From: Escherichia coli
Lineage (GTDB): Bacteria; Pseudomonadota; Gammaproteobacteria; Enterobacterales; Enterobacteriaceae
Assembly (NCBI RefSeq): GCF_003334405.1
Contig: NZ_QOWM01000012.1
Reading direction: 5' to 3' (one strand)
DNA length: 64,000 nucleotides
Numbering within the stretch: the first letter of the stretch is position 1; each line of letters starts with the position of its first letter. The notes below the pieces were generated by a model, which was not told the origin of the DNA, searched no databases, and worked only from the letters and a program-made list of their open reading frames with translations. Below are positions 4,391 to 46,017 of this stretch, in pieces. The position numbers were made by a program, and so were the translations under genes.

Positions 4391-4448
4391 TGAGTGCCAA
4401 TATATGCCGGATGCGACGCTAAACGCGTCTTATCCGGCCTACCGATAA

Positions 4449-5426
4449 TTATCCCAATAAACTCCTCACCGTCTGGCTGGAAATTCGCGCCTGACCATTC
4501 ACCGCCTGCAATAACACCTGATAGTTATGATTCGCGCTATCCAACACGCCGCCGAGATTTTCCGACGCCTGCACGGCGTTTTCCGTTTGCGGGAAGCGGG
4601 ACATGCCGTCGATCAACTGGCGGGCTTTTTCCTGCTGCACCGCCATTTGCGCGCGCTGCTGATTAATGTTTTCTAACATCTGGGAAATCCCTGCCCCGCC
4701 CTGTTGCAGGCTTTGCGCTAAACGCTCGGCCTGCGACGGTTCGGCAAAGGTTTTTAGCGGCATAAACGCCGACTTATCACCATCGGTGCGCACGCTTAAG
4801 GTGCTTTCAATGTTGGGCCACTGCTTTTCGGTGGTGGAGAAGCTGATGCCGTCCGCTTGCTGATGCAGTTGCACACCCACGCGGCGCAGGGCGTTGGTCA
4901 GCCGCGTCTGATACTGCGCGGCGCTGTCATCCTCAGACAGCATCACCGCCGAAAGCTGAGTCTGCCGCCCGTCAGAGACGCTGAACATGCGCGTTCCCGG
5001 CGTGGGGTTGTGTACGAGATTCGCCAGATCCGGCGAGTGAAAAGTCACCCGCGCCTCGCCCTGCAACACTGGCTGCAACTGGCGGTCTACCGCACCGCCG
5101 GAAAGCGCGGTGCGTTTGTCCAGCATCTGCATCAGCGCCGTACTCTGCGCCTGCCCGCCCTTACGCTGGCTGTGACGATAATCGAGCAACTGCTGCTCCA
5201 GTTGCCCGAGGTAGTGATCCGCCTGCTGCAACGTGGTGAGCTGGTCGTTAAGCTGCACGCTGTAACGCTGCGGGCGAGTGGTAATCAGCGGCGAGGCCGG
5301 ATATTCACTCGCCGTCGCCGGGAGTTTTTGCCGCACCGCCTGAGTGGGCGCAACGGTTGACGACGATACCGCAGCGCTATGCGCGCTGCCGGTGGCGAGT
5401 GACGAAGAAGTAAGTCCGACCTGCAT
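4449..5426 (-). CDS. lafW: Flag-2 protein of uncertain function (LafW-like, possible hook-associated/axial protein)
   Basis: 325-aa ORF directly downstream of lfgL; Gln/Ser-rich with a flagellar axial-protein-like C terminus; naming by position in the cluster. Confidence 0.45.
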   Translation of the reverse strand: MQVGLTSSSLATGSAHSAAVSSSTVAPTQAVRQKLPATASEYPASPLITTRPQRYSVQLNDQLTTLQQADHYLGQLEQQLLDYRHSQRKGGQAQSTALMQMLDKRTALSGGAVDRQLQPVLQGEARVTFHSPDLANLVHNPTPGTRMFSVSDGRQTQLSAVMLSEDDSAAQYQTRLTNALRRVGVQLHQQADGISFSTTEKQWPNIESTLSVRTDGDKSAFMPLKTFAEPSQAERLAQSLQQGGAGISQMLENINQQRAQMAVQQEKARQLIDGMSRFPQTENAVQASENLGGVLDSANHNYQVLLQAVNGQARISSQTVRSLLG

Positions 5427-6386: not shown

Positions 6387-7763
6387 TTAGCTGCACATTT
6401 CCAGCACCGAATCGAAAATCTCGGCCCCGGCGGAAATGACTTTCAGATTGGCTTCATAAATTTGTTGATAGGTGATCAGGTTAACCGCCTCTTCGTCCAT
6501 GCTGACGCCGCTGACGCTGCTCTGCTGGTTTTGCGCTGCGGAATAGACATTGGACGCGGCATCGACTTCCGTCTGGTTTTGCTGGCTGTAAATGCCGATA
6601 TTGCTGATGATTGACGAGCACGCCTGCCCGACCGTCACACTGCCAAGATTGGCAATTTCCAGCGGTTCGGTGGAGATGTTGATCAGCGCCTGCAGGTTGT
6701 CGCTGTTACCGCTTTCGTCCGGCGAACTGGAAAACGCCAGCTCATCGGCGGTGATATCCGGGTTAACGGTCAGTGGGCCATCGGCATTGCTGGCGTCATA
6801 AATAAACAGCGGCTCGCCGGGGTTACCGTTGAGATCGTAGCCCTGCGCCAGCTGGTTGTTGACCGCATCGGCAAACTGCGAGGCCATGCTGTTGATGGTG
6901 TCGGTCAACGGCGTCAGCACATCGTTTTGATAATCAAACAGTGCGCCTAATGAACCTCCAGTGTCGGTGGTCATCGTCGAGGTGGTGCCAGCGAAGGTCA
7001 GCGACATGGTCGGCGTGCCGTCGGCGTTGGTTTCCAGCGCGATGGTCGAGCTTTGTTGCCCGCTCACCAGCGGCTGACCGTTTTTCAGGGTGACGTTGTA
7101 GTTGCCCTGGTCGTCGATATTGACCTGCACTTCCATCATCCCGCTCAGTTCTTCCACCATCTGATCGCGGGCGTCGTACAGCGCAGAGGCGTTATCACCG
7201 TTGGCTTCGGCCTGAGCAATTTGCTGGTTATAGCTGGCGATACCGCTGGTGAGCGTGTTGATTTGCGACACCATCGCCTGCTGCTGGCTGATGATTTCCG
7301 TGCTTTGCGAGTCGACGTAATCGAGCGTGTTATCAATACGCAACGACAGCGCCCCGGCTTCGCTGATCACCTGCTCGCGCAGGGCGGAATCATCGGGGCT
7401 GGTGGTCGCTTCGTTAAGGGCGGCGAAGAAGTTATCGAAGCCGCCGCTCAGGCTGCTGTTATCGTCGCTTAGTACCGCTTCCAGTTGGCTGAGATACCCC
7501 TGCTGGGTGCTGTAATAGCCGTAATCGCTGGCGGCATACCACACCTGATTCACCTGATACTGGTTGGAGACGCGGCGAATGCTGTCCACCTGTACGCCGT
7601 TACCGGCGCTGTTCGGCGAACCGCCGCTGGCACCGATGGTGCTGATCTCCGCCACCTGGCGAGTGTAGCCAGTGATCATGGCGTTAGCGGTGTTTTGCGC
7701 CGTGACGTTCAGCTCCACCTGCGCGGTTGATGCGCCGCTGTAGCCGATGTTAATCATGTCCAT
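6387..7763 (-). CDS. lfgK: Flagellar hook-associated protein 1 (FlgK-like)
   Basis: 458-aa ORF with FlgK-like N terminus (MDMINIGYSGASTAQVELNVTAQNTANA) and C terminus. Confidence 0.85.
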   Translation of the reverse strand: MDMINIGYSGASTAQVELNVTAQNTANAMITGYTRQVAEISTIGASGGSPNSAGNGVQVDSIRRVSNQYQVNQVWYAASDYGYYSTQQGYLSQLEAVLSDDNSSLSGGFDNFFAALNEATTSPDDSALREQVISEAGALSLRIDNTLDYVDSQSTEIISQQQAMVSQINTLTSGIASYNQQIAQAEANGDNASALYDARDQMVEELSGMMEVQVNIDDQGNYNVTLKNGQPLVSGQQSSTIALETNADGTPTMSLTFAGTTSTMTTDTGGSLGALFDYQNDVLTPLTDTINSMASQFADAVNNQLAQGYDLNGNPGEPLFIYDASNADGPLTVNPDITADELAFSSSPDESGNSDNLQALINISTEPLEIANLGSVTVGQACSSIISNIGIYSQQNQTEVDAASNVYSAAQNQQSSVSGVSMDEEAVNLITYQQIYEANLKVISAGAEIFDSVLEMCS

Positions 7764-7834
7764 GTTGGATCCTTACCGGTAAATCGTGCCGGTTAAAAGC
7801 GGCGTGAAGATGGGGATTCTTAAATTCCGTAAAC

Positions 7835-8060
<226 letters not shown>

Positions 8061-8066
8061 GGAGCC

Positions 8067-8366
8067 TCACCTATGCTTCGGCGACAACTGCTTCACAATC
8101 ATCGCCGCAATCCCAATCCCGTGCTGCTGCGCCAGGGTGTTACACAACTCATCGTCATAAAATCCCTGCATCATGCGCACCGAATCGCTGTTAAATGGGT
8201 TATCTTTCGAATCAAACAACTCGTTGGTTTTACGCATCTCTTTCAGCATGTTGCGTAAAAAAATCGCCTCAAACTGTTCGGCGGCCTGCCTGATATCATT
8301 GGCCTGAACCTTCGGCCCCATTAACGCATCGCTGCCGTCAATCCCGCCGCTGCCGTTAACTTTCAT
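8067..8366 (-). CDS. lfgJ: FlgJ-like rod-assembly protein, rod-binding domain only (no muramidase domain)
   Basis: 99-aa ORF resembling the FlgJ N-terminal rod-binding domain (..AAEQFEAIFLRNMLKEMRKT..); stop overlaps the lfgI start. Confidence 0.7.
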   Translation of the reverse strand: MKVNGSGGIDGSDALMGPKVQANDIRQAAEQFEAIFLRNMLKEMRKTNELFDSKDNPFNSDSVRMMQGFYDDELCNTLAQQHGIGIAAMIVKQLSPKHR

Positions 8367-9481
8367 CAGATCACCTCCAGGTCGGCATCCAGCGCGCCCG
8401 CTTCATGCAGCGCCTGCAAAATTGACATAATGTCATCCGGCGTCGCACCTAAACTGTTCAACGCATTGACCAGCGTTTTCAGGCTGCTCGACTCCGGCAA
8501 ACTCACCACGCCCGGACGGGCATGATTCACCGCGATATTGCTCTGCGGCGTTACCGCTGTGCGCCCGCCCGCAAAGGCATTCGGCTGGCTGACGTTGCTG
8601 GTTTCGTTAATCGAAACGGTCAAACTGCCGTGCGACACCGCCGCCGCGTGCAGCGCAACGCCATCGCCCATCACCACCGTGCCGGTACGCGAGTTAAACA
8701 CCACGCGAGCGCGGATTTTCTCTGCCTGCACCTGCACATCGTCCAGTTGCGACATAAACGCCACCCGCGCACCGGGGCTGGTAGGCGCACGCACGGTAAC
8801 GTTGGTGGAACTCTGTGCGGTGGCAATGCCACCAAACGAGGCGTTAATCGCCGCCGCAATGTTGTTAGCGTCTTTAAACGACGGACGTTTCAGGTTGAGG
8901 GTGATAGTGTCGCCCATCTGAAAATCGCTGGGGATCTCGCGCTCCACCGTTGCGCCGTTAGGAATTAACCCGGCGGTTGGAGTATTAACCGTTACGCTGG
9001 AGCCACTAGCCCCGGTGGCGTTCATCCCGCCGACCACCACGCTGCCCTGCGCCAGGGCATACACTTCACCATCTGCGCCGTGCAACTGCGTCAACAGCAA
9101 GGTGCCGCCGCGAATACTTTTCGCATCGCCAATCGACGAGACGGTGACATCAATGGTCTGCCCGCGCGAGTACATCGGCGGCAACGTGGCGCTCACCGCC
9201 ACTGCGGCGACGTTTTTCACCTTCGGGTCGATTTTATTCGGCAACTGCACGCCAAACTGGCGCAGCATATTGGTGATGGTCTGGTTGGTGAATTTGACCT
9301 GGTTTTTATCACCGGTACCGTCGAGGCCGACCACCAGGCTGTAGCCGACCAGTTGGTTTTCACGCACGCCCTGTACGTTAACCAGTGACTCCAGCGATTG
9401 CGCCAGCACCACGCCGGGTAGCGCCAGGCTTACGGCTACGACCACTGTTTTTATCCAGTTTTGCATTGCACTCTCCGGCAT
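8366..9481 (-). CDS. lfgI: Flagellar P-ring protein (FlgI-like)
   Basis: 371-aa ORF with signal peptide and FlgI-like sequence throughout. Confidence 0.9.
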
Positions 9482-10146
9482 TAAATCGGGAACAGAGGAT
9501 GGTTAAACAACCGCGTCAGCCAGCCTGCGGCATTGGCGTCGCTTAACGCGCCACGTCCGGCATAGGAGATACGGGCGTCGGCGATCCGCTGGGAGGAAAC
9601 CGAGTTGTCGTTCTGGATGTCGTCGGCGCGCACCAGGCCGCTTAAGCGGATGTACTCATCGCCCTGGTTGAGGGTGAGCCATTTCTCGCCGCGAATTTCC
9701 AGGATGCCGTTGGGCTGCACCGCATGGACGGAAACGGTGATCTCCCCGCGCAGGCTGTTCTGCTGCTGGGAAGTGGCGCTGCCGTCAAAGTCGCGGTTGG
9801 CGTCGATAGAGCCGGAAAGCTTATCTTTAGTGTGACCAAAAATGGTCGGTGCGCCGATATCGACGGTGTTGCTTTTGCCGAAGTTGGTTTTCGCCTGTTT
9901 GCTCGACTGGGTGGATTCTTCGAGGATCACCGTCAGGATATCGCCCACGCGATAAGCCCGCCGATCGGCGGTCAGCGACCAGTTGTAGCCAGTTTCAAAT
10001 ACACCGCCAGCACGCCCGTCTGCCGGAGGCGGTGCTTCGGTTTTCGGTGGCGCAAAGTATGCGTCGTCTTTTTTGACCAGAATGGCCTGCGATTCACACC
10101 CGCTAAGCAGGGGAAGCAGTGCCACCAGCCAGAGATAATTTTTCAC
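9481..10146 (-). CDS. lfgH: Flagellar L-ring lipoprotein (FlgH-like)
   Basis: 221-aa ORF with lipoprotein signal (LLSGC) and FlgH-like sequence. Confidence 0.9.
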
Positions 10147-21030: not shown

Positions 21031-22368
21031 TTACTGTTCTGCCTTTTTGGCACAAGGAAAGAGGATTTGCAGGCGGCTTTGCACCAGTTCGAGGGAGGCG
21101 GGTTCGCGCATCTCCTGGCGCAAAAATCGCTCAATGGCCGGAAACATTTTCACCGCTTTGTCGACGCTGGCGTCGGCACCTGCCACATAGCCGCCGAGCG
21201 GGATCAGAGGTTTGATCTCCATATAGGCGGCATAGTTTTGCTTTAACGCGCGGGCGGATTGCTGATGTTCCAGGCTGGTGACCTGGTTCATGCAGCGGCT
21301 GATCGACTGGCCGATATCAATGGCCGGATAGTGCCCCGCTTCCGCCAGTTTGCGGGTTAATACGATATGCCCGTCCAGCACCGCGCGCGCGCAGTCGACA
21401 ATCGGATCTTGCTGGTCGTCACCTTCCGCCAGCACGGTGTAGATGGCGGTCATCGATCCCGCGCTTTCGCTGTTGCCTGCGCTTTCGACCAGTTTGGGGA
21501 TCATGCCGAATGCCGATGGCGGATAACCTTTGGTGGCGGGCGGTTCGCCGAGCGAGAGGGCGATTTCCCGCTGCGCCATCGCGTAGCGGGTCAGGGAATC
21601 CACCAGCAGTAAGACGTGATGCCCGCGGTCGCGAAACCAGGCGGCGATGGAGTGGCACAGTTCGGTGGCTTTCAGACGCATCAGCGGCGATTCATCGGCA
21701 GGCGCGACGACGACGATAGACTTTGCCAGCCCGTCCGCGCCCAGCGAGTGGTCGATAAACTCTTTCACTTCGCGCCCGCGTTCCCCAATCAGCCCAACCA
21801 CCACGATATCGGCTTTGGTCTGGCGGGTGATCATCCCCAGCAGCACGCTTTTCCCGACGCCGCTGCCTGCCATTAGTCCGACGCGCTGGCCTTTGCCGAT
21901 GGTCAGCAGGCCGTTGATCGCTTTCACGCCCACGTCCAGCGGTTCGTCTACCGAACGACGAGTTAAGGGATTAACCGAGGGCGGCAACGGCGGCAGAAGG
22001 TCGTTGCCGTTCAGGCGGCCTTTGCCATCCAGCGGTTCGCCGAGGCCATTCACCACGCGGCCTAACCAGCTTTCGCCTATCAGGATGTCGTGGGCTTTTT
22101 CTTCCGGGAAGACGCGTGCGCCTGCCATCAGGCCGACCGGCTGTTTAAACGGCATTAAATAGGTGATGTCGCGATTAAAGCCCACGGCCTGCGCGTCGAT
22201 CAGCGTGTGATTGGCACTTTCGATGCGGCACAGCTGCCCGGTCATTAGCGGGCAGCCGACACTCTCCAGCAGGATGCCGTTAAGGCGCACCAGCCGCCCG
22301 GCGACGCGGGCCAGCGGGATCGACTCCAGCGAGCGCAGGGCGTTATCGAACGCAGAAAAATCACTCAC
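21031..22368 (-). CDS. lfiI: Flagellum-specific ATPase (FliI-like)
   Basis: 445-aa ORF with Walker A GSGVGKS and F1/FliI-type ATPase sequence. Confidence 0.9.
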   Translation of the reverse strand: MSDFSAFDNALRSLESIPLARVAGRLVRLNGILLESVGCPLMTGQLCRIESANHTLIDAQAVGFNRDITYLMPFKQPVGLMAGARVFPEEKAHDILIGESWLGRVVNGLGEPLDGKGRLNGNDLLPPLPPSVNPLTRRSVDEPLDVGVKAINGLLTIGKGQRVGLMAGSGVGKSVLLGMITRQTKADIVVVGLIGERGREVKEFIDHSLGADGLAKSIVVVAPADESPLMRLKATELCHSIAAWFRDRGHHVLLLVDSLTRYAMAQREIALSLGEPPATKGYPPSAFGMIPKLVESAGNSESAGSMTAIYTVLAEGDDQQDPIVDCARAVLDGHIVLTRKLAEAGHYPAIDIGQSISRCMNQVTSLEHQQSARALKQNYAAYMEIKPLIPLGGYVAGADASVDKAVKMFPAIERFLRQEMREPASLELVQSRLQILFPCAKKAEQ

Positions 22369-33691: not shown

Positions 33692-33900
33692 AACTGCCGG
33701 ATGCGGCGTGAACGCCTTATCCGTCCTACCGTTCAGGCACAAGTTTGTAGGCATGATAAGACGCGCCAGCGTCGCATCAGGCATCTGCGCATAACTGCCG
33801 GATGCGGCATAAACGCCTTATCCGGCCTACCGATCCGGCACAAGTTTGTAGGCATGATAAGACGCGCTAGCGTCGCATCAGGCATCTGCGCACAATTATG
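33692..33900. repeat. REP/BIME cluster adjacent to rayT
   Basis: Four REP units: gccggatgcggcgtgaacgccttatccgtcctac, gtaggcatgataagacgcgccagcgtcgcatcaggc, and a second similar pair. Confidence 0.85.
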
Positions 33901-34393
33901 AAATGATACGCTCCCCGGCACTAAAATCCGTTACGTCCCCCGCCCAATCGATGGGATATAACCCTCGCGCGACATCGCGATGGAACGTTGAGAATGGCCA
34001 ATCACTCACTTGCTTTACCCAACCATGCTTTACTGGATTTATATAAATATAATCAACATGATGCCTATAATCTTTGGTATTGCGGATGGCGTGCTCCCAA
34101 AAACGTGGTTGCCAGATATTTTTCAATCCACAAGCATGGGTAAATTGCTTTTTAATTTCCCGCCAGCGCGAGGAAAAATCATCATCGCCTTCAGGTAATG
34201 TCCAGATACAGTGCATATGCTCTGGCAAAACGACCCAGGCGTTGATTTCAAAAGGCCTGTCTCGCTTAACTTTAATAATGGCGTGACGGAGCATCTGGTA
34301 CTGGGTGGTCAAAAGTTGGCTTCGACGATTTCGTAAATTCACCGTGAAAAACCATGTTCCCCCCTTGATGTAATAACGACGATATTCAGACAT
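33896..34393 (-). CDS. rayT: REP-associated tyrosine transposase (IS200/IS605-like TnpA_REP)
   Basis: 165-aa ORF with an HuH motif (..LPEHMHCIW..) and catalytic-Tyr region, flanked by REP clusters. Confidence 0.8.
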   Translation of the reverse strand: MSEYRRYYIKGGTWFFTVNLRNRRSQLLTTQYQMLRHAIIKVKRDRPFEINAWVVLPEHMHCIWTLPEGDDDFSSRWREIKKQFTHACGLKNIWQPRFWEHAIRNTKDYRHHVDYIYINPVKHGWVKQVSDWPFSTFHRDVARGLYPIDWAGDVTDFSAGERIIS

Positions 34394-34479: not shown

Positions 34480-34572
34480 CGCGGGCTCGTAGGCATGATA
34501 AGACGCGCCAGCGTCGCATCAGGCACCTGCGTACAACTGCCGGATGCGGCGTAAACGCCTTATCCGTCCTAC
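34480..34572. repeat. REP element pair
   Basis: gtaggcatgataagacgcgccagcgtcgcatcaggc ... gccggatgcggcgtaaacgccttatccgtcctac. Confidence 0.8.
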
Positions 34573-35318
34573 AAAATCGTCTCTTCCGTCAAAATCCTGC
34601 GCGCGCCCAAAAAATGGTCCTGCCAGAAAGGTTCGGCTAATCGGCTTATCCGAATGGTTTCGCCGGTACGTGGCGACTCGATAAATTGCCCATCGCCCAA
34701 ATACACGCCCATATGATCGGCTATCTCGCGGCTGTGGATATGGAAAAACAGCAAATCTCCCCGGCGCAGGTCGTTGTTCGCCACAATCGTTGCCCGGCGA
34801 TAGTGGTACATCTCATTGGCCGTGCGCGGGAGCTTAGCCTCAAGGATCTTGTTGTAGGCATAAAAAACCAACCCGCTACAGTCAAAGCCTTTATCAGGCC
34901 GCGTACCGCCCCAGACGTAAGGCTTGCCAAGCTGCTGCTCCAGGCGGTGAATCGCCACTTCGGTAATGTTATGCAGATGGTCGCTGCTTAAAAAGTGGTT
35001 GTTTTCCGCCAGCGCCTGCCAGCGTCTGTCACTCGCCTTGAGCGGAGCAGGAAACCATTCTGGATGCTGTTTTATCTGCTCCCGGTTGTGCTGGCGTAGC
35101 GCCCTTTTGCTTTCGGCATTGCCTTCCACAATATAGCTGGCCTGCTTTTTCAGATGAGTTTGGTACTGTTTTAATAAACGCGCACGGTTTTGCATCCGCT
35201 GGCGGGCGGCGTAGCTGAAAGAGATATGTGATGTGGTGGCGCTGGCAAATGAAGAAAACGGCAAACAAATCAACAGTAATCCCGACAATACAAAGGATGG
35301 AATCGACGGCAAGGACAT
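34569..35318 (-). CDS. yafL: NlpC/P60-family peptidoglycan endopeptidase lipoprotein
   Basis: NlpC/P60 catalytic region (..FDCSGLVFYAY.. Cys; ..DHMGVYLG.. His); start taken at the internal Met preceding the signal peptide. Confidence 0.8.
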   Translation of the reverse strand: MSLPSIPSFVLSGLLLICLPFSSFASATTSHISFSYAARQRMQNRARLLKQYQTHLKKQASYIVEGNAESKRALRQHNREQIKQHPEWFPAPLKASDRRWQALAENNHFLSSDHLHNITEVAIHRLEQQLGKPYVWGGTRPDKGFDCSGLVFYAYNKILEAKLPRTANEMYHYRRATIVANNDLRRGDLLFFHIHSREIADHMGVYLGDGQFIESPRTGETIRISRLAEPFWQDHFLGARRILTEETIL

Positions 35319-35790: not shown

Positions 35791-36069
35791 ATGATTCAAA
35801 GGGATATTGAATACTCGGGACAATATTCAAAGGATGTAAAACTTGCACAAAAGCGTCATAAGGATATGAATAAATTGAAATATCTTATGACGCTTCTTAT
35901 CAATAATACTTTACCGCTTCCAGCTGTTTATAAAGACCACCCGCTGCAAGGTTCATGGAAAGGTTATCGCGATGCTCATGTCGAACCGGACTGGATCCTG
36001 ATTTACAAACTTACCGATAAACTTTTACGATTTGAGAGAACTGGAACTCACGCGGCGCTCTTTGGGTAA
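35791..36069 (+). CDS. yafQ: Toxin of the RelE/YafQ family (mRNA interferase)
   Basis: 92-aa ORF 3 bp downstream of dinJ with a RelE-like C terminus. Confidence 0.9.
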   Translation: MIQRDIEYSGQYSKDVKLAQKRHKDMNKLKYLMTLLINNTLPLPAVYKDHPLQGSWKGYRDAHVEPDWILIYKLTDKLLRFERTGTHAALFG

Positions 36070-36224
36070 AGCCCGCTTCCGATGAAATTTGTAAACCCTG
36101 CGCCGACAGGCTTGCGTAAAACTCTTTTGGTGATAATGTGAGCCTTCCAAATCCAGACTATTCCGATTTGGGATCCATTTTGCCGTCCTGGCGTGTGTAA
36201 CCGTTTTATCAAGGAATAAGCAGT

Positions 36225-36965
36225 ATGCGTAAAATCGCATTAATTCTTGCGATGTTGTTGATCCCGTGCGTTTCATTTGCCGGTTTGCTGGGCAGCAGTA
36301 GCTCTACCACGCCTGTGAGCAAAGAGTATAAGCAGCAGTTGATGGGATCCCCTGTCTACATCCAGATCTTCAAGGAAGAACGTACGCTCGATCTCTACGT
36401 CAAAATGGGCGAGCAATATCAACTGCTCGACAGCTATAAAATCTGTAAATATTCCGGCGGCTTAGGGCCAAAACAGCGTCAGGGCGATTTCAAAAGCCCG
36501 GAAGGGTTTTATAGCGTCCAGCGTAATCAGTTAAAACCAGACAGCCGTTACTACAAAGCGATTAATATTGGTTTCCCCAATGCCTATGACCGTGCGCATG
36601 GTTATGAAGGGAAATACCTGATGATCCACGGCGATTGTGTTTCCATCGGCTGCTACGCAATGACCAATCAGGGTATTGATGAGATATTCCAGTTCGTTAC
36701 TGGTGCGCTGGTGTTTGGTCAGCCGAGCGTGCAAGTGAGTATTTACCCGTTCCGCATGACCGACGCCAATATGAAGCGCCATAAATATTCCAACTTTAAG
36801 GACTTCTGGGAGCAACTGAAGCCGGGTTACGACTACTTTGAGCAAACCCGTAAGCCACCAACCGTTTCTGTGGTCAATGGTCGTTACGTGGTCAGCAAGC
36901 CGTTAAGCCACGAAGTTGTGCAGCCACAACTGGCATCAAACTACACGCTCCCCGAGGCAAAATAA
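36225..36965 (+). CDS. yafK: YkuD-fold L,D-transpeptidase-like periplasmic protein
   Basis: Signal peptide and YkuD catalytic motif (..[17 protein letters not shown]..). Confidence 0.85.
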
Positions 36966-37703
36966 GCGCCATTCGCCTGGCATAATCTTTTGCCAGGTTT
37001 CATTGCCCGTCAGCGGCTGTGTTGCAATCACCGTGACCACATCATTCGGTGTGGTCTGCGAGCTGAAGTCGATTTCCACATCCTGATCCAGCAACGTTGC
37101 CACGCCAAACGGCGCGCGGCGGGTGATCCAGTGTAAATTAGTCGAGCAATACGCCATTACATAGCGCCCGTCCGAAAGCAGCATGTTGAAAACGCCCTTC
37201 TGCCGCAGTTCATCCGCCAGTGAGGCGATATATTTAAATACCGCCGCCATGTTGCCCGGTGTGCGCGGGTAACGCTGCGTTAATTTATGCAGGAGCCAGC
37301 AGAAGGCTTTTTCGCTGTCGGTTTCGCCTACCGGGCGGAAGTTGCCGGTTTCCAGTGATTTGTAGCCCGTCAGTTGTCCGTTATGGGCATAAGTCCAGTT
37401 ACGCCCCCATAACTCGCGGGTAAATGGGTGAGTATTTTCCAGCGCCACCTCGCCCCGATTAGCCTGGCGAATATGAGCCACCACCGAACAGGATTTTATC
37501 GGGTAGTCCTGGACAAGTTTGGCGATGGGGGAATTAAAGCTGGGTTGTGGATCTTTAAATGTGCGACAGCCTTTACCTTCGTAAAAGGTAATGCCCCAGC
37601 CATCTTTATGTGGCCCGGTTCCACCACCACGCTGTACAAGCCCGGTGAAACTAAAGCAGATATCGGTAGGGACGTTGGCGCTCATCCCGAGCAATTCGCA
37701 CAT
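36936..37703 (-). CDS. yafJ: Class II glutamine amidotransferase-like protein
   Basis: Begins MCELLGMS.. with the N-terminal nucleophile Cys2; 255 aa. Confidence 0.85.
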
Positions 37704-37769
37704 GGGTAACCTCCACAACAGCGGGAGCGCATGGCCCCCGGCGAAGATTGATTTAAGAATTTTCAGGTC

Positions 37770-37912
37770 GGATGCGGCGTGAACGCATTATTCGGCCTAC
37801 GGTTCGCGTACAGATTTGTAGGCATGATAAGACGCGTCAGCGTCGCATCAGGCATCAGCGCACAAATGCCGGATGCGGCGTAAACGTCTTATCCGGCCTA
37901 CGCCAGACTTAC
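37770..37912. repeat. REP/BIME cluster between yafJ and gmhA
   Basis: Three REP units (gtcggatgcggcgtgaacgc.., gtaggcatgataagacgcgtcagcgtcgcatcaggc, gccggatgcggcgtaaacgtcttatccggcctac). Confidence 0.8.
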
Positions 37913-38487
37913 TTAACCATCTCTTTTTCAATCAACTGGATCAGGATATGGATCACTTTAATGTGAATCTCCTGAATGCGGTCGGCATAACCAAAGTGCG
38001 GTACGCGAATTTCGATATCCGCCGTGCCAGCCATTTTGCCGCCGTCTTTACCGGTCAGGGTGATCACTTTCATTCCCTTCTCACGCGCCGCTGCGATCGC
38101 TTTGATCACGTTTGCAGAGTTACCGGAGGTGGAGATCCCCAGCAGTACATCGCCTTCGCGACCTACCGCTTCAACGTAGCGGGAGAAAATATCATTGAAA
38201 CCGAAATCATTACCGACGCAGGAAATATGACTAACGTCAGAAATAGCAATCGCCGGGTAGCCCGGACGGTTTTCACGGTAGCGACCGGTCAACTCTTCGG
38301 CAAAGTGCATAGCGTCGCAATGGGAACCGCCGTTGCCGCAGGAAAGCACTTTGCCACCGGCTTTAAAGCTGTCTGCTAACAGGACCGCCGCGCGCTGAAT
38401 GGCGTGAATATTGGCGTCATCTTTTAAAAAGTTAGCCAGCGTTTCCGCCGCTTCGTTCAGTTCGTTACGAATAAGATCCTGGTACAT
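37909..38487 (-). CDS. gmhA: Phosphoheptose isomerase (sedoheptulose-7-phosphate isomerase)
   Basis: SIS domain; 192-aa product from [17 protein letters not shown].. Confidence 0.9.
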
Positions 38488-38688
38488 GAGGATATCCTTC
38501 AGCATAAATGTAATAGACAAAATGCAGTGTACCGGATACCGCCAAAAGCGAGAAGTACGGGCAGGTGCTATGACCAGGACTTTTTGACCTGAAGTGCGGA
38601 TAAAAACAGCAACAATGTGAGCTTTGTTGTAATTATATTGTAAACATATTGCTAAATGTTTTTACATCCACTACAACCATATCATCAC

Positions 38689-38705
38689 AAGTGGTCAGAC
38701 CTCCT
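38689..38705 (+). promoter_or_regulatory. FadR operator-like site in the fadE leader
   Basis: AAGTGGTCAGACCTCCT resembles the FadR consensus AACTGGTCNGACCTGTT, just upstream of the fadE start. Confidence 0.45.
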
Positions 38706-38726
38706 ACAAGTAAGGGGCTTTTCGTT

Positions 38727-41171
38727 ATGATGATTTTGAGTATTCTCGCTACGGTTGTCCTGCTCGGCGCGTTGTTCTATCACCGCGTGAGCTTATTTAT
38801 CAGCAGTCTGATTTTGCTCGCCTGGACAGCCGCCCTCGGCGTTGCTGGTCTGTGGTCGGCGTGGGTACTGGTGCCTCTGGCCATTATCCTCGTGCCATTT
38901 AACTTTGCGCCTATGCGTAAGTCGATGATTTCCGCGCCGGTATTTCGCGGTTTCCGTAAGGTGATGCCGCCGATGTCGCGCACTGAGAAAGAAGCGATTG
39001 ATGCGGGCACCACCTGGTGGGAGGGCGACTTGTTCCAGGGCAAGCCGGACTGGAAAAAGCTGCATAACTATCCGCAGCCGCGTCTGACCGCCGAAGAGCA
39101 AGCGTTTCTCGACGGCCCGGTAGAAGAAGCCTGCCGGATGGCGAATGATTTCCAGATCACCCATGAGCTGGCGGATCTGCCGCCGGAGTTGTGGGCGTAC
39201 CTTAAAGAGCATCGTTTCTTCGCGATGATCATCAAAAAAGAGTACGGCGGGCTGGAGTTCTCGGCTTATGCCCAGTCTCGCGTGCTGCAAAAACTCTCCG
39301 GCGTGAGCGGGATCCTGGCGATTACCGTCGGCGTGCCAAACTCATTAGGCCCGGGCGAACTGTTGCAACATTACGGCACTGACGAGCAGAAAGATCACTA
39401 TCTGCCGCGTCTGGCGCGTGGTCAGGAGATCCCCTGCTTTGCACTGACCAGCCCGGAAGCGGGTTCCGATGCGGGCGCGATTCCGGACACCGGGATTGTC
39501 TGCATGGGCGAATGGCAGGGCCAGCAGGTGCTGGGGATGCGTCTGACCTGGAACAAACGCTACATTACGCTGGCACCGATTGCGACCGTGCTTGGGCTGG
39601 CGTTTAAACTCTCCGACCCGGAAAAATTACTCGGCGGTGCAGAAGATTTAGGCATTACCTGTGCGCTGATCCCAACCACCACGCCGGGCGTGGAAATTGG
39701 TCGTCGCCACTTCCCGCTGAACGTACCGTTCCAGAACGGACCGACGCGCGGTAAAGATGTCTTCGTGCCGATCGATTACATCATCGGCGGGCCGAAAATG
39801 GCCGGGCAAGGCTGGCGGATGCTGGTGGAGTGCCTCTCGGTAGGCCGCGGCATCACCCTGCCTTCCAACTCAACCGGCGGCGTGAAATCGGTAGCGCTGG
39901 CAACCGGCGCGTATGCTCACATTCGCCGTCAGTTCAAAATCTCTATTGGTAAGATGGAAGGGATTGAAGAGCCGCTGGCGCGTATTGCCGGTAATGCCTA
40001 CGTGATGGATGCTGCGGCATCGCTGATTACCTACGGCATTATGCTCGGCGAAAAACCTGCCGTGCTGTCGGCTATCGTTAAGTATCACTGTACCCACCGC
40101 GGGCAGCAGTCGATTATTGATGCGATGGATATTACCGGCGGTAAAGGCATTATGCTCGGGCAAAGCAACTTCCTGGCGCGTGCTTACCAGGGCGCACCGA
40201 TTGCCATCACCGTTGAAGGGGCTAACATTCTGACCCGCAGCATGATGATCTTCGGACAAGGAGCGATTCGTTGCCATCCGTACGTGCTGGAAGAGATGGA
40301 AGCGGCGAAGAACAATGACGTCAACGCGTTCGATAAACTGTTGTTCAAACATATCGGTCACGTCGGTAGCAACAAAGTTCGCAGCTTCTGGCTGGGCCTG
40401 ACGCGCGGTTTAACCAGCAGCACGCCAACCGGCGATGCCACTAAACGCTACTATCAGCACCTGAACCGCCTGAGCGCCAACCTCGCCCTGCTTTCTGATG
40501 TCTCGATGGCAGTGCTGGGCGGCAGCCTGAAACGTCGCGAGCGCATCTCGGCCCGTCTGGGGGATATTTTAAGCCAGCTCTACCTCGCCTCTGCCGTGCT
40601 GAAGCGTTATGACGACGAAGGCCGTAATGAAGCCGACCTGCCGCTGGTGCACTGGGGCGTACAAGATGCGCTGTATCAGGCTGAACAGGCGATGGATGAT
40701 TTACTGCAAAACTTCCCGAACCGCGTGGTTGCCGGGCTGCTGAATGTGGTGATCTTCCCGACCGGACGTCATTATCTGGCACCTTCTGACAAGCTGGATC
40801 ATAAAGTGGCGAAGATTTTACAAGTGCCGAACGCCACCCGTTCCCGCATTGGTCGCGGTCAGTACCTGACGCCGAGCGAGCATAATCCGGTTGGCTTGCT
40901 GGAAGAGGCGCTGGTGGATGTGATTGCCGCCGACCCAATTCATCAGCGGATCTGTAAAGAGCTGGGTAAAAACCTGCCGTTTACCCGTCTGGATGAACTG
41001 GCGCACAACGCGCTGGTGAAGGGGCTGATTGATAAAGATGAAGCCGCTATTCTGGTGAAAGCTGAAGAAAGCCGTCTGCGCAGTATTAACGTTGATGACT
41101 TTGATCCGGAAGAGCTGGCGACGAAGCCGGTAAAGTTGCCGGAGAAAGTGCGGAAAGTTGAAGCCGCGTAA
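38727..41171 (+). CDS. fadE: Acyl-CoA dehydrogenase
   Basis: 814-aa product from [14 protein letters not shown].. with acyl-CoA dehydrogenase domains. Confidence 0.9.
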
Positions 41172-41177
41172 ATGAAT

Positions 41178-41204
41178 AACGGAGCCGAAAGGCTCCGTTT
41201 CTTT
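41178..41204 (+). terminator. Rho-independent terminator after fadE
   Basis: ggagccgaaaggctcc hairpin followed by gtttcttt. Confidence 0.6.
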
Positions 41205-41213
41205 ATCCGCTAA

Positions 41214-41687
41214 TTATTTAAAATTAAAGCCATCCGGATGGTTTTCCAGGCTGCCGGTCAACGCCGCGAACAACACCGTTTTACCATCAATCGAAAGCGC
41301 ATCGTTCACATTCAGCCAGGTGAGTTTCTCTTGCGACGTTTTCTCATCAATAGTCGAGAACAGCCCCGTCATCTGATTAGATTTCTCGGACCACATCACA
41401 GCGATACGTTGCGAGCCACAGTCATGCGGTTTGCACGCGCTCATCACCTGATACGTCTCATCTCCCAACGTTACGGTTTGTGCGGGAGTATAAGTACCGC
41501 CTTTCATCACCCAGGCAGGCAGCTTATGCCCTTGTACCATCTGATTAAATGCAGCTTTGGTGGTTTCGCCCTTTGCAAGGCTGCTAATGGTTAAATCATC
41601 CTGCGCCATTGCACTGGTGGCGATGACCAGAGCGGCGACTGTCGTTATTGCCTTAAACATCATTCCTCCCGAGCTTATCCTGCCCAT
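41214..41687 (-). CDS. ivy: Inhibitor of vertebrate (C-type) lysozyme
   Basis: 157-aa signal-peptide ORF with the conserved CKPHDC motif. Confidence 0.85.
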   Translation of the reverse strand: MGRISSGGMMFKAITTVAALVIATSAMAQDDLTISSLAKGETTKAAFNQMVQGHKLPAWVMKGGTYTPAQTVTLGDETYQVMSACKPHDCGSQRIAVMWSEKSNQMTGLFSTIDEKTSQEKLTWLNVNDALSIDGKTVLFAALTGSLENHPDGFNFK

Positions 41688-41840
41688 GTTATTAACCTCC
41701 TAAAGCCTGGCGATAACACGATAATTTGCAAATCAGATATTTCCAATATCAGCATTTGTTATCAATTTATTCTGCGCTAAGGCAACTGCCTGATAAGGTG
41801 TTAAAGTTATAAAACCCTTCGCATAAAGGAGTTGTACACC

Positions 41841-42611
41841 GTGCCTGGTTTGAAGATTACGCTTTTGCAGCAACCACTGGTGTGGATGGATGGTCCTGCC
41901 AACCTGCGTCATTTTGATCGTCAACTGGAAGGTATTACCGGGCGCGATGTGATCGTTCTACCGGAGATGTTTACCAGCGGCTTTGCCATGGAAGCGGCAG
42001 CTTCGTCGCTAGCACAAGATGACGTAGTGAACTGGATGACAGCTAAGGCGCAGCAGTGCAATGCGCTGATTGCAGGCAGTGTTGCATTACAAACGGAGTC
42101 TGGTTCGGTTAACCGCTTTTTGCTGGTTGAGCCGGGCGGCACGGTACATTTTTATGATAAGCGTCATCTGTTCCGCATGGCAGATGAGCATCTACATTAT
42201 AAAGCGGGCAATGCGCGAGTGATTGTGGAATGGCGCGGCTGGCGTATTTTGCCGCTGGTGTGCTACGACTTACGTTTTCCTGTGTGGTCGCGCAATCTCA
42301 ACGATTATGACCTCGCCCTGTACGTCGCCAACTGGCCTGCTCCGCGCTCTCTGCACTGGCAGGCATTGCTGACGGCCCGCGCGATTGAGAATCAGGCGTA
42401 TGTGGCGGGATGCAATCGCGTCGGCAGCGATGGCAACGGCTGCCATTATCGCGGTGACAGCCGGGTGATTAATCCGCAAGGAGAGATTATCGCTACTGCC
42501 GACGCGCATCAGGCAACGCGCATTGATGCGGAGCTGTCGATGGCAGCATTGCGGGAATATAGAGAAAAGTTTCCGGCATGGCAGGATGCGGATGAGTTTA
42601 GGTTGTGGTGA
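41841..42611 (+). CDS. yafV: Nitrilase-superfamily omega-amidase
   Basis: CN-hydrolase fold (catalytic Cys in ..LPLVCYDLRFP..); GTG start at 41841. Confidence 0.85.
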   Translation: MPGLKITLLQQPLVWMDGPANLRHFDRQLEGITGRDVIVLPEMFTSGFAMEAAASSLAQDDVVNWMTAKAQQCNALIAGSVALQTESGSVNRFLLVEPGGTVHFYDKRHLFRMADEHLHYKAGNARVIVEWRGWRILPLVCYDLRFPVWSRNLNDYDLALYVANWPAPRSLHWQALLTARAIENQAYVAGCNRVGSDGNGCHYRGDSRVINPQGEIIATADAHQATRIDAELSMAALREYREKFPAWQDADEFRLW

Positions 42612-42651
42612 GTGGGGGTTGTGTTTAAGGACGGGGAGAGTCGGGGTATTA

Positions 42652-43788
42652 CTACGAAAGCCCGCTCCCCGCAAGGACTGACGCCAGGTAGTTTCTGTCC
42701 ATGGCTGCTTTTCGCATCTTACGTCTTAACCCTGCCTTGAATACCTTCTCATTCGTCAAAATATTAATAGCAATGTGCCGTATCCCTGAAAATAATTCTG
42801 CTGCGTTTCCTCTTCTTATTTTGTAGTCGTCTTCATTCATTACCACGTCCAGACGCCTGTGCAGCTTATTCTCCACGTGCCAGTGGTTTCGGATTGCTGT
42901 GGCGAACTTCTCTGCGGTTAAATCAGCAGAACTGATATAATATCTGACCGTCATTTCTGGCTCTTTCTTTTGTTCTGCTATTATTGACCGAAAGGAGACT
43001 GCCACGCATAATTTCTTCAGCCCTTTCCATTCAAACGTGAAATCAATAAGTTCATCAGGGACATCGCAAACAATATGAAGACGGATTTCTTCTCTGCCGT
43101 GACTCTTTTCACTCATTGCGTAACTGTCATGCGCTGGATTATTTAATTCTTTCAGCGGAAATTTTTCCTCAAAGGCTTTATTTAGCCGCCCCTGGTTTCC
43201 TTTTACCGCGAATAAATAATCACCTCCCTGTTTTTGTATCTTCTCTGCAATATCTTTCTGGCAACCCATCGCATCAGTTGTGATGATTTTTCCTTTAATA
43301 TCCAGCATGTTAAGAAGTTCTGGGATAGCTGTAATCTCATTAGATTTCTCATCCGTCCTGATCTGTCCGATGACCAGACTGTGCATTGTTGAGAACGCAC
43401 TAATGACATGAATCGCTCCCTTGCGGCGACTCTTGTCATAAGAATGCCGGAGTGTTTTTCCATCAATTGCGATGACGTCTTTATCATCTGAAGTATGGCA
43501 ATCTCGCATCCAGTTAATAAAGCACTCGTGAAATTTTGAAGGACTGATACAGGATACAACTCTGGCGATGGTATCGTGAACAGGAATACCATTTTCAAAA
43601 TCACCATATTGTTTTAAAAAATCGAGATGTGTTTCCCCAAAATCCTCTATATCTTCCCAGCCTTCTGCACCAGAAATAACGGCACAAATAGTCAACAGTA
43701 GAATATCCGATAATTTATGTTCCACTTTCCAGGCTTGTCTGTAATCGGGGATAATAGAAATATGTTCCATCAATTTTTTAAGTTCCAT
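42652..43788 (-). CDS. ISAs1-family (H-repeat-associated) transposase
   Basis: 378-aa ORF, apparently intact, with an H-repeat/ISAs1-type transposase sequence; the element ends were not mapped. Confidence 0.8.
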
Positions 43789-44218
43789 TTTGTTCTCCTT
43801 AATTATGTAAGGAGTATTTGATCATGTATAAGCAATAAAAAACAGCTTCAGGTAATGAGGAATATCTCAATTTTTAAACATAAAATGCGAATTATTTAGT
43901 ACAAAAAATCAGCGTTACGTGATCTTTCCCTGCCCCTGCGCTCACTACCATGGCTCTTTACCACAGCAGCCGGGGTTGTTTGGGACCGACTTCCGACAGC
44001 AGATCCCGGTGGGCCTGCCACCATCTCTTCACAAGCTTATGCTTATTACATGCAAAACGTCCCGTTTTGCATCTTTGTGCCTACGGCACACCGGTGATCT
44101 TTCCCTGATGAGGGATATATTAACTATTGAACATTAGCGCGAATTATTTAGTGCAAAAAATCAGCATCACGTGATGCTTTTCCTGCTATTAATAACCTCC
44201 TCTATTTAACTATATTTT

Positions 44219-44611
44219 TCATTGATGCAATTCGTAGATTTGAAGAAGTTCAACTGCCACATTTTTATTTTTACTATCGCAATTTTTATACCATACCCAT
44301 GCTTCCGTATTTTTTACTTTTTTTAAATCATCCATAATAAAATCCCCACCAAAAACAGTAAAATACAATGTTTCCTCATTAAAAATAAAACTCACTGCCC
44401 CCCCCTCTTTTATTTTAATTTCCGCTTCATTTGTGTTCAAATCAACTTTTTTAATTACTCCATGTAAGTTGGGTTTTGATAGTTTTTCTACGCCACCATC
44501 AGGAGCGGGTAATATACATCGTTTAAGAACTTTAGCATTTGCACATCCAATAACCCAAATTAGAATGCACACTCCCATGTTAATCGCATTAACGTGTCTT
44601 AAAACGTTCAT
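44219..44611 (-). CDS. Candidate immunity lipoprotein for the adjacent Rhs C-terminal toxin
   Basis: Small AT-rich ORF immediately downstream of and overlapping the Rhs tip; internal Met gives the signal-peptide/lipobox-like start [15 protein letters not shown]. Confidence 0.4.
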
Positions 44612-46017
44612 ATCTAATTCTCTCTCCAGGATGCGAATACATCCAACTTGTCACTTTCTTACACAACTCATCTACATCTTCATTCTGTGCACGGGTACAT
44701 CCCATAGTTGGTTTCCAGCCTTGTCGAGGAGCATAAGGATCGCGCAACGATGATCCCCCACCATGTAGCCATCTTGCTCTAGTATCTGTAGTATAGATCT
44801 TCGTTGTGCCATATGCTGCCGATATTCCTGATTCATTTGTCTCACAACCAACGACTTCACCTGTATATGGATCACCAGCACCACGTTGAGAACGACGATC
44901 AATTCTATTGCTACTATCAAAAGTCATTGAATCACCTGTTTCAGGATCATAATAAATAGTCACTCCTCCAGTCATATCAGTAAGAACAAGAGGAGTTTCA
45001 GCACCTGCCCGGTCTGGAGCGGGAGGCCCATATACACTTATAACTCGTTCTAACCCCAGTGGATCAGTGTAACGTATTGGTACCAGTGGATACGTGTATA
45101 GATTTATTCCCCCCTTCAACCCTATCGGATCCTGGGTGATATACCGCCCCTGCAACGGATCGTAGTACCGGTGACGGTTGTAATACAGTCCCGACTCCTC
45201 ATCATACTGCTGCCCCGGCAGACGGAGTGACTGTTGAAGGTGCTGCGCACTGGTTTCGCCCAGCAGGTTTCCCCATTCGTCATACTCCCCGCACCACGCC
45301 GTTTCCCCTTCCGGGCTGATAAGCGCCTGCGGCAGTCCCCGGTGGTCACAGTGGTAAAGATGAAGTTTCCTCTCCGGGATGTATTCCGCCTCCATCTGCG
45401 CGGCCATCTGTTCCGCCGTCAGCCCGCACTGCGCAAGCCATGCCTCACTCTCCGCACTCACCGCTCCCGCGCGCAGTTCCCGCTCCAGCCTCCCCAGCAT
45501 CACCGCCAGCTCCGCCGGGAGCGTCACACCCGTGTCCTCCTGCAACACCTCCGCCAGGCTCCGGTGCCGCGCCTTCGCCTGTTCGCCATTCTCTGTTTCG
45601 ATTCTGATGAGCGGCGTGAAGCTCCCCGGCTGGTATACCGTCTGGATACGCGTGGTGCCGGTCTGTACCGTCGTCAGCCTGTCACCGTCCCACCCGTACC
45701 ATGTCACCTCCGGTTTACGCGACAGCGACATCCACCCCGTCAGGTCACGCTCCCGCCGCCATACCCGTTTTCCCGTCCGGCGGCCCAGCGGGTCATAGAG
45801 GTACCGGCTCTCCACCTGTGGTTCGCCGTGCTGTATCCGCGTGTAGAACACCAGGCGGTGCTGGCTGTCGTAGTGGTAGTGGTGGGTCCGCTCGTCGTGC
45901 ATCCGTATCACCCCTTCCGGGATGCGGTCCGTCTTCTCCGCCAGCCTGCCGTATTCATCGTGGCGGTAGACATAGTGCGCATCTTCCGCGATGCGGTTAC
46001 CCGGCGTTTTCCCCGAT
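44589..46017 (-). pseudogene. Orphan Rhs C-terminal fragment: distal core, DPxGL boundary and variable C-terminal toxin domain
   Basis: ..[31 protein letters not shown] followed by a ~150-aa divergent tip; no N-terminal Rhs core; the frame stays open upstream of the track start to about 46017. Confidence 0.7.

Follow-up and report, generated by a model that had tools for sequence, protein, structure and literature searches.

Single-domain FlgJ proteins have been recognized since the early 2000s and form a well-known class, to which LfgJ of the E. coli Flag-2 system, already named and annotated by RefSeq as 'rod-binding protein', belongs. The Flag-2 system was reportedly described by Ren et al. 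in 2005, and the name LfgJ is said to date from there. The N-terminal half of Salmonella FlgJ alone reportedly still conferred weak motility in the hands of Hirano, Minamino and Macnab in 2001. How, then, is the cell wall opened for the rod of a flagellum whose FlgJ consists of the rod-binding domain only? In the Flag-1 system FlgJ's C-terminal domain is a GH73 β-N-acetylglucosaminidase (PMC7277832, PMC8517470). In the Fla1 system of R. sphaeroides a single-domain FlgJ acts as scaffold and is bound by SltF, which is encoded in the flgG operon (PMC7277832), and in Borrelia burgdorferi a single-domain FlgJ interacts with the SLT-domain enzyme BB0259, the gene of which is unlinked (PMC8517470). 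The lateral systems of Vibrio and Aeromonas are proven swarming organelles according to the literature, whereas Flag-2 of E. coli has not been seen to work; in the ST131 strain EC958 LafA is not expressed and no Flag-2 motility was detected under the conditions tested (PMC4637896).

How does LfgJ compare with these proteins? With Flag-1 FlgJ of Salmonella and E. coli (NCBIfam TIGR02541) it shares the N-terminal rod-binding module, the position of the gene and the 1-nt overlap with flgI, but Flag-1 FlgJ continues for about 210 further residues, and in the 313-residue K-12 protein Pfam recognizes a Glucosaminidase domain (PF01832, GH73) at residues 160–295 in addition to the Rod-binding domain at residues 50–97. 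With LfgJ of the Vibrio and Aeromonas lateral systems it has in common the position in the order flgI-flgJ-flgK-flgL-lafW-lafA and the single Rod-binding domain, albeit in proteins of 118–132 aa that are only 34–37% identical to E. coli LfgJ over the domain; moreover, V. harveyi and A. veronii likewise have no lytic gene in the 8 kb flanking the locus on either side. Unlike in R. sphaeroides, where FlgJ and SltF form a pair, no SLT-domain gene, and hence no operon-encoded enzyme of this type, is found within the Flag-2 locus. Borrelia FlgJ with BB0259 comes nearest as a model for a partner whose gene lies outside of the cluster, and it is this situation that Flag-2 LfgJ resembles most, as its partner, if there is any, would be encoded elsewhere; the Borrelia flagellum, however, is a spirochaete periplasmic flagellum, and FlgJ is needed there for hook and filament and not for the rod. 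Finally, the lateral FlgJ of Plesiomonas is encoded in a syntenic cluster of the lateral or Flag-2 type and has a rod-binding module of the lateral type but, unlike LfgJ, carries a GH73 glucosaminidase domain.

lfgJ and its surroundings in the Flag-2 island

The window, that is the whole stretch of 64,000 nucleotides that was analyzed, contains a Flag-2 (lateral-type) island with its chromosomal surroundings and is 99.9% identical to strain FORC_081. The assignment to Flag-2 is based on a contiguous lfh-lfi-lafK-lfg-laf cluster that extends from dinB/lafU to lfhA/yafL and is separate from flag-1. In the annotated order lafC…lafA, lafZ, lafW, lfgL-K, lfgJ-I-H-G-F-E-D-C-B and lfgA-M-N are followed by modification genes and these by lfiJ…E, lafK, lfiM…R and lfhB-A; past lfhA and outside of the island lie rayT, yafL, dinJ-yafQ, dpaA, others and then mltD. 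The gene order of the Flag-2 cluster has been described before (PMC6993521). In RefSeq the product encoded between those annotated as FlgI and FlgK in this cluster is a 'rod-binding protein' (Table 1), and the order lfgI-lfgJ-lfgK of the window is kept as flgI-flgJ-flgK in 9 other loci, including all lateral-type ones examined. In the frame of lfgJ no ORF longer than the 99 codons is possible. The ATG of lfgJ (8366-8364) and the TGA stop codon of lfgI (8368-8366) overlap by 1 nt (TGATG), as flgI and flgJ do in K-12, and this overlap together with the Shine-Dalgarno sequence suggests translational coupling of the two genes.

Table 1. Positions of lfgJ and associated features in the window, and FlgJ proteins of lateral-type clusters in other genera
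Feature	Position	Strand	Length	Description
lfgJ coding sequence	8067..8366	-	99 aa	ATG start; ORF, Pfam Rod-binding, RefSeq 'rod-binding protein'
lfgJ translation start region	8364..8385	-		GGAGG Shine-Dalgarno sequence 7 nt before ATG
Rod-binding domain PF10135, codons 42-93	8088..8243	-		Pfam, E 5.9e-14
Stretch homologous to the FlgJ N-terminus, codons 22-98	8073-8303	-		BLASTP and tblastn versus K-12 FlgJ
lfgI, P-ring protein gene	8366..9481	-		adjoins lfgJ upstream, one operon; ORF, RefSeq FlgI
lfgK, hook-filament junction protein gene	6387..7763	-		next after lfgJ downstream; ORF, RefSeq FlgK
lfgJ-lfgK spacer	7764..8066	.	303 nt	two tandem REP/BIME units of ~118 nt
lafW	4449..5426	-		only ORF in the lfg/laf operon region that is conserved but unassigned
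yafL	34569-35318			C40 peptidase
mltD	58692-60050			SLT-type lytic transglycosylase domain
Aeromonas veronii lateral FlgJ	L008:9116-9514		132 aa	Rod-binding only
Vibrio harveyi lateral FlgJ	L009:9104-9460		118 aa	Rod-binding only
Photobacterium swingsii lateral-type FlgJ			169 aa	Rod-binding only
Tolumonas lateral-type FlgJ			108 aa	Rod-binding only
Gallaecimonas kandeliae lateral-type FlgJ			131 aa	Rod-binding only
Tatumella lateral-type FlgJ			124 aa	Rod-binding only
Citrobacter lateral-type FlgJ			100 aa	Rod-binding only
Plesiomonas shigelloides lateral FlgJ	L006:10001-10987		328 aa	Rod-binding and Glucosaminidase

Among 5426 complete E. coli genomes lfgJ is present as a single copy in 1274, designated 'rod-binding protein' in every record listed, and the dual-domain flgJ of Flag-1 is present in all 5426 and, therefore, in every Flag-2-positive strain. 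Between the window and the ST131 allele lfgJ differs at 5 nonsynonymous and 8 synonymous positions, corresponding to a dN/dS of 0.14, and for lfgG, H, I, K, L and lafW of the same two E. coli lineages dN/dS is 0.01–0.09 at a dS of 0.15–0.35; this comparison within E. coli was used because synonymous sites are saturated versus Citrobacter, rendering dN/dS unusable. The low values for lfgJ and its neighbors indicate that the system is under purifying selection and not in decay. lfgJ is thus a real and maintained gene, as evident from its Shine-Dalgarno sequence, the overlap with lfgI, the flgI-flgJ-flgK synteny, the dN/dS and its occurrence in 1274 genomes. Close strains differ in the intactness of Flag-2, as lfiI, the gene for the FliI-like ATPase of Flag-2, is an intact ORF of 445 codons in the window (21031-22368, minus strand) but annotated as pseudogene with an internal stop in FORC_081 (L001:33332-34669), though the two sequences are otherwise so similar.

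Domain content of LfgJ and of the Flag-2 locus

Pfam detects a single domain in LfgJ, Rod-binding, which is matched over its full length (profile positions 1–51 of 51), and no match to PF01832, placing LfgJ, together with the location of its gene between flgI and flgK, in the Rod-binding family and not among the dual-domain FlgJ proteins. In BLASTP, residues 22–98 of LfgJ align with residues 30–102 of K-12 FlgJ at 35% identity. The NCBIfam equivalog model for dual-domain FlgJ, TIGR02541, aligns with LfgJ over positions 21–91 of 294 at 67.8 bits (cut-off 193), and the other NCBIfam FlgJ models stay below threshold with their N-terminal 70–100 positions alone being covered. A multiple alignment locates the difference: LfgJ ends a few residues past the conserved '…VKQLSP' motif, the point at which dual-domain FlgJ proteins go on into a linker and the GH73 domain with the sequence 'AQAALE(S/T)GWG…'. 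AF2 models LfgJ with low confidence (pLDDT 53) as an all-helical protein with 20 disordered N-terminal residues, a hydrophobic Sec-type N-terminus appears to be absent, and a search of the PDB sequences with the rod-binding domain returned no solved homolog. Close homologs of LfgJ, 104 in number, are mostly about 100 aa long (88–134 aa when full-length, plus shorter partial entries). They come from Citrobacter, Leclercia, Scandinavium, Buttiauxella, Dryocola, Pseudescherichia and Siccibacter, a hydrolase domain is absent from all of them, and PF10135 is the only recorded Pfam domain in most. These data confirm that LfgJ is the rod-binding module of the FlgJ N-terminus only, without the domain that cuts the cell wall. 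The initial annotation had proposed exactly this for the 99-residue protein, and the domain search that it recommended found Rod-binding only and no hydrolase domain. It had also described enteric Flag-1 FlgJ as carrying a C-terminal muramidase, which is correct as to the presence of an extra hydrolase domain but not as to its type, as GH73 is a β-N-acetylglucosaminidase and not strictly a muramidase.

Database names deserve some caution in this family. The NCBIfam models NF009349, NF009350, NF009351 and NF009352, which match LfgJ and at 97–140 positions have the size of single-domain FlgJ proteins, are named 'peptidoglycan hydrolase', the UniRef name of the C. rodentium ortholog begins with 'Lateral flagellar pe…', and apparently some UniRef entries are misnamed as well. 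Such names are misleading for short FlgJ families because these proteins are devoid of a hydrolase domain.

Could a hydrolase be hidden elsewhere in the locus? A tblastn search of the whole window with FlgJ's C-terminal domain yielded nothing significant and no GH73-like sequence. A weak match within lfgH (9570-9686, E 0.016) lies in a frame different from that of lfgH and was judged to be due to chance. Searches with MltD and YafL found in the whole window mltD and yafL themselves only. The spacer between lfgJ and lfgK is occupied by two REP/BIME units, which form a direct repeat (D1) of 92 nt with 90% identity, and gave no tblastn signal, ruling it out as a hiding place for a hydrolase; its length varies between E. 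coli lineages, being 303 nt in the window and 189 nt in the ST131 strain 751. For the REP core GCCTGATAAGACGCG the window contains 9 occurrences, compared with 0.12 expected. REP sequences are located in the spacer and also at 4424, 10189, 27245, 33751-33866, 34493 and 37822, and rayT, the gene for a REP-associated tyrosine transposase, is located at the edge of the island (about 33896-34393). Among Flag-2 proteins lacking a clear flagellar assignment, the NCBIfam scan identified LafZ as CadC/ToxR-like regulator, LafU as MotB/OmpA protein, a protein of 322 aa as FliB-like (flagellin lysine methylase) and a protein of 838 aa as glycosyltransferase, after which comes a cytidylyltransferase; for LafD and LafW no NCBIfam family was found. 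Considering annotation tables, NCBIfam and, for LafW, Pfam, none of all Flag-2 genes encodes an SLT, M23, C40 or amidase domain. The Flag-2 locus thus encodes no peptidoglycan-cleaving domain, and neither LfgJ nor the spacer nor the unassigned ORFs contain the hydrolase domain that an overlooked adjacent ORF might have supplied.

LafW was considered as the missing lytic enzyme and rejected. It has no significant match in Pfam either, its family profile gives weak matches to flagellins among PDB sequences (E 0.003–0.05), and Foldseek with the AF2 model (pLDDT 71) returns flagellins as best hits (E 2e-7 to 4e-4) and FlgL/HAP3 next. As judged by profile and model, LafW is predicted to be an axial-family protein similar to flagellins and HAPs and not a lytic enzyme. 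In every lateral-type cluster examined a LafW of 325–361 aa without Pfam or NCBIfam family is encoded directly after lfgL (in addition to lafW of the window at L006:13628-14677, L007:12653-13675, L008:11783-12790, L009:12000-13028, L010:12751-13752, L012:10073-11158, L013:9739-10773 and L014:9747-10769). Its C-terminus, 'AQAN.SRQTVV.LL', resembles the C-terminal helix of flagellin, and LafW looks like an uncharacterized extra axial or junction protein that is specific to lateral flagella.

Lateral-type clusters of other genera

HMMER, run in full against 1.84 billion representative proteins, yielded 5016 matches, of which the nearest ones beyond the cluster of E. coli and Citrobacter are all 103–132 aa long, among them proteins of 124 aa in Tatumella, 132 aa in Buttiauxella and 117 aa in Enterobacter ludwigii. 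For the comparison of loci FlgI served as anchor and the neighboring genes were read together with their Pfam content, and the choice of loci is therefore independent of the architecture of FlgJ. In seven other lateral-type genera FlgJ contains the Rod-binding domain only (Table 1), and dual-domain FlgJ was encountered in the lateral-type cluster of Plesiomonas only. No SLT, M23, C40 or amidase domain is encoded in the flanking 6–10 kb on either side in 8 other lateral-type loci. A single-domain LfgJ devoid of a hydrolase is thus the norm for lateral-type flagella, including those of genera in which the lateral flagella work. This finding changes the perspective of the initial annotation, which had presented the single-domain architecture as a peculiarity of this system; it is ordinary, the form that lateral flagella normally have and a variant of FlgJ that is well known.

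What happened in Plesiomonas? The length of 328 aa agrees with the table of the Plesiomonas paper, in which the protein is called FlgJL. Its N-terminal domain is closest to that of the lateral protein of V. harveyi (54% identity), and in comparison with the polar FlgJ of Plesiomonas itself the GH73 domains are 58% and the N-terminal domains 43% identical, suggesting that the hydrolase domain was gained. The lateral FlgJ of Plesiomonas would thus be a chimera that secondarily captured the GH73 domain of its polar paralog, and its glucosaminidase hints at a possible advantage of having a dedicated enzyme. The opposite scenario, that E. coli LfgJ arose by secondary loss within the lateral lineage, was rejected on account of the seven other lateral-type genera with single-domain proteins and of the C-terminal domain of the Plesiomonas protein, which is nearest to the one in the organism's polar paralog. 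Four matches that seemed to be single-domain proteins (P0120-P0123) were discarded as fragments of dual-domain polar FlgJ frameshifted in a poor assembly. On the metagenome contig in question (L004:10001-10999) FlgJ appears split into separate genes for Rod-binding (123 aa) and Glucosaminidase (179 aa), and most flagellar genes of the contig are frameshifted, an assembly artifact that mimics single-domain FlgJ in protein databases.

Opening of the cell wall for the Flag-2 rod

We consider it likely, with a probability of roughly 80%, that LfgJ acts as cap and assembly scaffold of the Flag-2 rod with nothing but the rod-binding module, and that the wall is opened by activities encoded elsewhere in the chromosome. 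This reading builds on the observed domain content, on a locus free of lytic genes, on purifying selection and on the norm among lateral flagella; as regards export, capping and the origin of the lytic activity it is inferred. By analogy to FlgJ, LfgJ would be exported through the type III export gate of Flag-2 and would, likewise by analogy to Salmonella FlgJ, sit on the growing rod (LfgB/C/F/G) during polymerization; the capping role is carried over from the Salmonella protein by virtue of homology in a domain of about 50 residues. Since no peptidoglycan-cleaving domain is encoded in the Flag-2 locus, the hole for the rod should be made by activities encoded outside of it, most likely by redundant housekeeping lytic transglycosylases, of which E. 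coli has many, and hydrolases, and possibly, alternatively, by the glucosaminidase of Flag-1 FlgJ upon co-expression of both systems. Opening of the cell wall by an enzyme encoded elsewhere is plausible by analogy to SltF and BB0259. The initial annotation went further in stating that the system must recruit a separate peptidoglycan-cleaving enzyme, which is too strong a conclusion from these two cases, as Flag-1 FlgJ is available in each of the 5426 genomes and as the N-terminal half of Salmonella FlgJ is said to be sufficient for weak motility.

Use of the glucosaminidase domain of Flag-1 FlgJ by the Flag-2 rod in trans, which would allow LfgJ to manage without an enzyme of its own, would fit to the occurrence of Flag-1 flgJ in all Flag-2-positive strains and also to the dual-domain polar FlgJ (for example VP0784, 'rod assembly protein/muramidase') of genera with single-domain lateral LfgJ, Vibrio, Aeromonas and Photobacterium being dual-flagellated genera. 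Such a dependence on Flag-1 is nevertheless unlikely: the conditions of expression typically differ between polar and lateral systems, and Flag-1 FlgJ is delivered through the basal bodies of Flag-1, so that an action at Flag-2 sites is not obvious. Furthermore, Tatumella ptyseos, Tatumella having a single-domain LfgJ, is reported to be motile without flag-1 (PMC6993521). If this is so, systems of this type do not strictly need a Flag-1 FlgJ. It could also be imagined that no lytic activity, dedicated or recruited, is involved and that the lateral rod passes through gaps arising from normal peptidoglycan turnover, as none of the loci examined contains a lateral-specific lytic enzyme and as Salmonella FlgJ without its C-terminal half is, as mentioned, reportedly still functional to some degree. 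The rod, however, is much wider than the native pores of peptidoglycan. In addition, the single-domain systems that were studied in depth required a specific enzyme each time, SltF (PMC7277832) and BB0259 (PMC8517470), which makes passage through such gaps quite improbable.

Is LfgJ instead a truncated remnant that lost its hydrolase half while a Flag-2 system without function decayed? Most E. coli have Flag-2 deleted, and in some strains it is inactivated, as by the frameshift in lfgC of strain 042 and the internal stop in lfiI of FORC_081, it is not expressed in EC958 (PMC4637896), and REP elements fill the space after lfgJ. This idea can hardly be upheld, however, as the short architecture of LfgJ is found across eight genera, including Vibrio and Aeromonas with lateral flagella that in well-studied members are functional according to the literature, as lfgJ and its neighbors are under strong purifying selection, as tblastn detects no trace of GH73 3' of lfgJ, and as Plesiomonas, the one dual-domain case, looks like a secondary gain.

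No statement about a lytic enzyme for any lateral flagellum was found in the literature searched, and two comparative papers on enterobacterial flag-2 discuss neither FlgJ nor peptidoglycan. One could speculate that lateral-type flagella, as in Vibrio, Aeromonas, Photobacterium and enterobacterial Flag-2, constitute a class without a peptidoglycan-cleaving enzyme of its own that depends on a specific partner, either one particular housekeeping lytic transglycosylase that LfgJ recruits or the primary FlgJ in trans, and from which Plesiomonas escaped by recapturing the glucosaminidase domain of polar FlgJ; we regard such a generalization as doubtful. If the primary FlgJ did act in trans, the second flagellar system would rely on the first for its mechanism.

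Two lytic enzymes encoded in the window, YafL and MltD, had been proposed as candidates by location, and both genes lie where the initial annotation placed them (Table 1). Recruitment of one of them by LfgJ as specific partner would be supported, in the case of MltD, by its SLT-type lytic transglycosylase domain, the class to which SltF of R. sphaeroides and BB0259 of Borrelia belong, and by the motility of H. pylori, which according to Roure et al. in 2012 reportedly depends on MltD and Slt. Yet mltD is present in 5425 and yafL in 5411 of the 5426 E. coli genomes, as compared to 1274 for lfgJ, so that neither co-varies with Flag-2; YafL as a C40 (NlpC/P60) endopeptidase represents a class without precedent in rod penetration, and no lytic gene is linked to the lateral clusters in eight other genera. 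Moreover, the two genes are set apart from the island, yafL by about 0.9 kb and mltD by about 25 kb past its end at lfhA, with housekeeping and toxin-antitoxin genes, IS elements and a T6SS remnant in between and with yafL on the strand opposite to lfhA. Both are core genes that over 99% of E. coli have, with or without Flag-2, and their proximity is uninformative; location therefore does not single them out, nearness of a gene to mltD or yafL should not serve as a lead, and a specific partnership of LfgJ with either of them is very unlikely.

As to the two genes themselves, yafL is unusually divergent, being at least 99% identical to the allele of the window in 927 genomes only and 90–95% identical in 3444, unlike mltD, which is at least 95% identical everywhere in E. 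coli. Downstream of the island are also located dpaA, encoding a peptidoglycan-Lpp amidase, and ivy, encoding a lysozyme inhibitor (window about 36000-46000, from L002 8439-14825). The clustering of dpaA, ivy, yafL and mltD is regarded as coincidental as far as Flag-2 is concerned, because these genes are present in K-12-type genomes without Flag-2.
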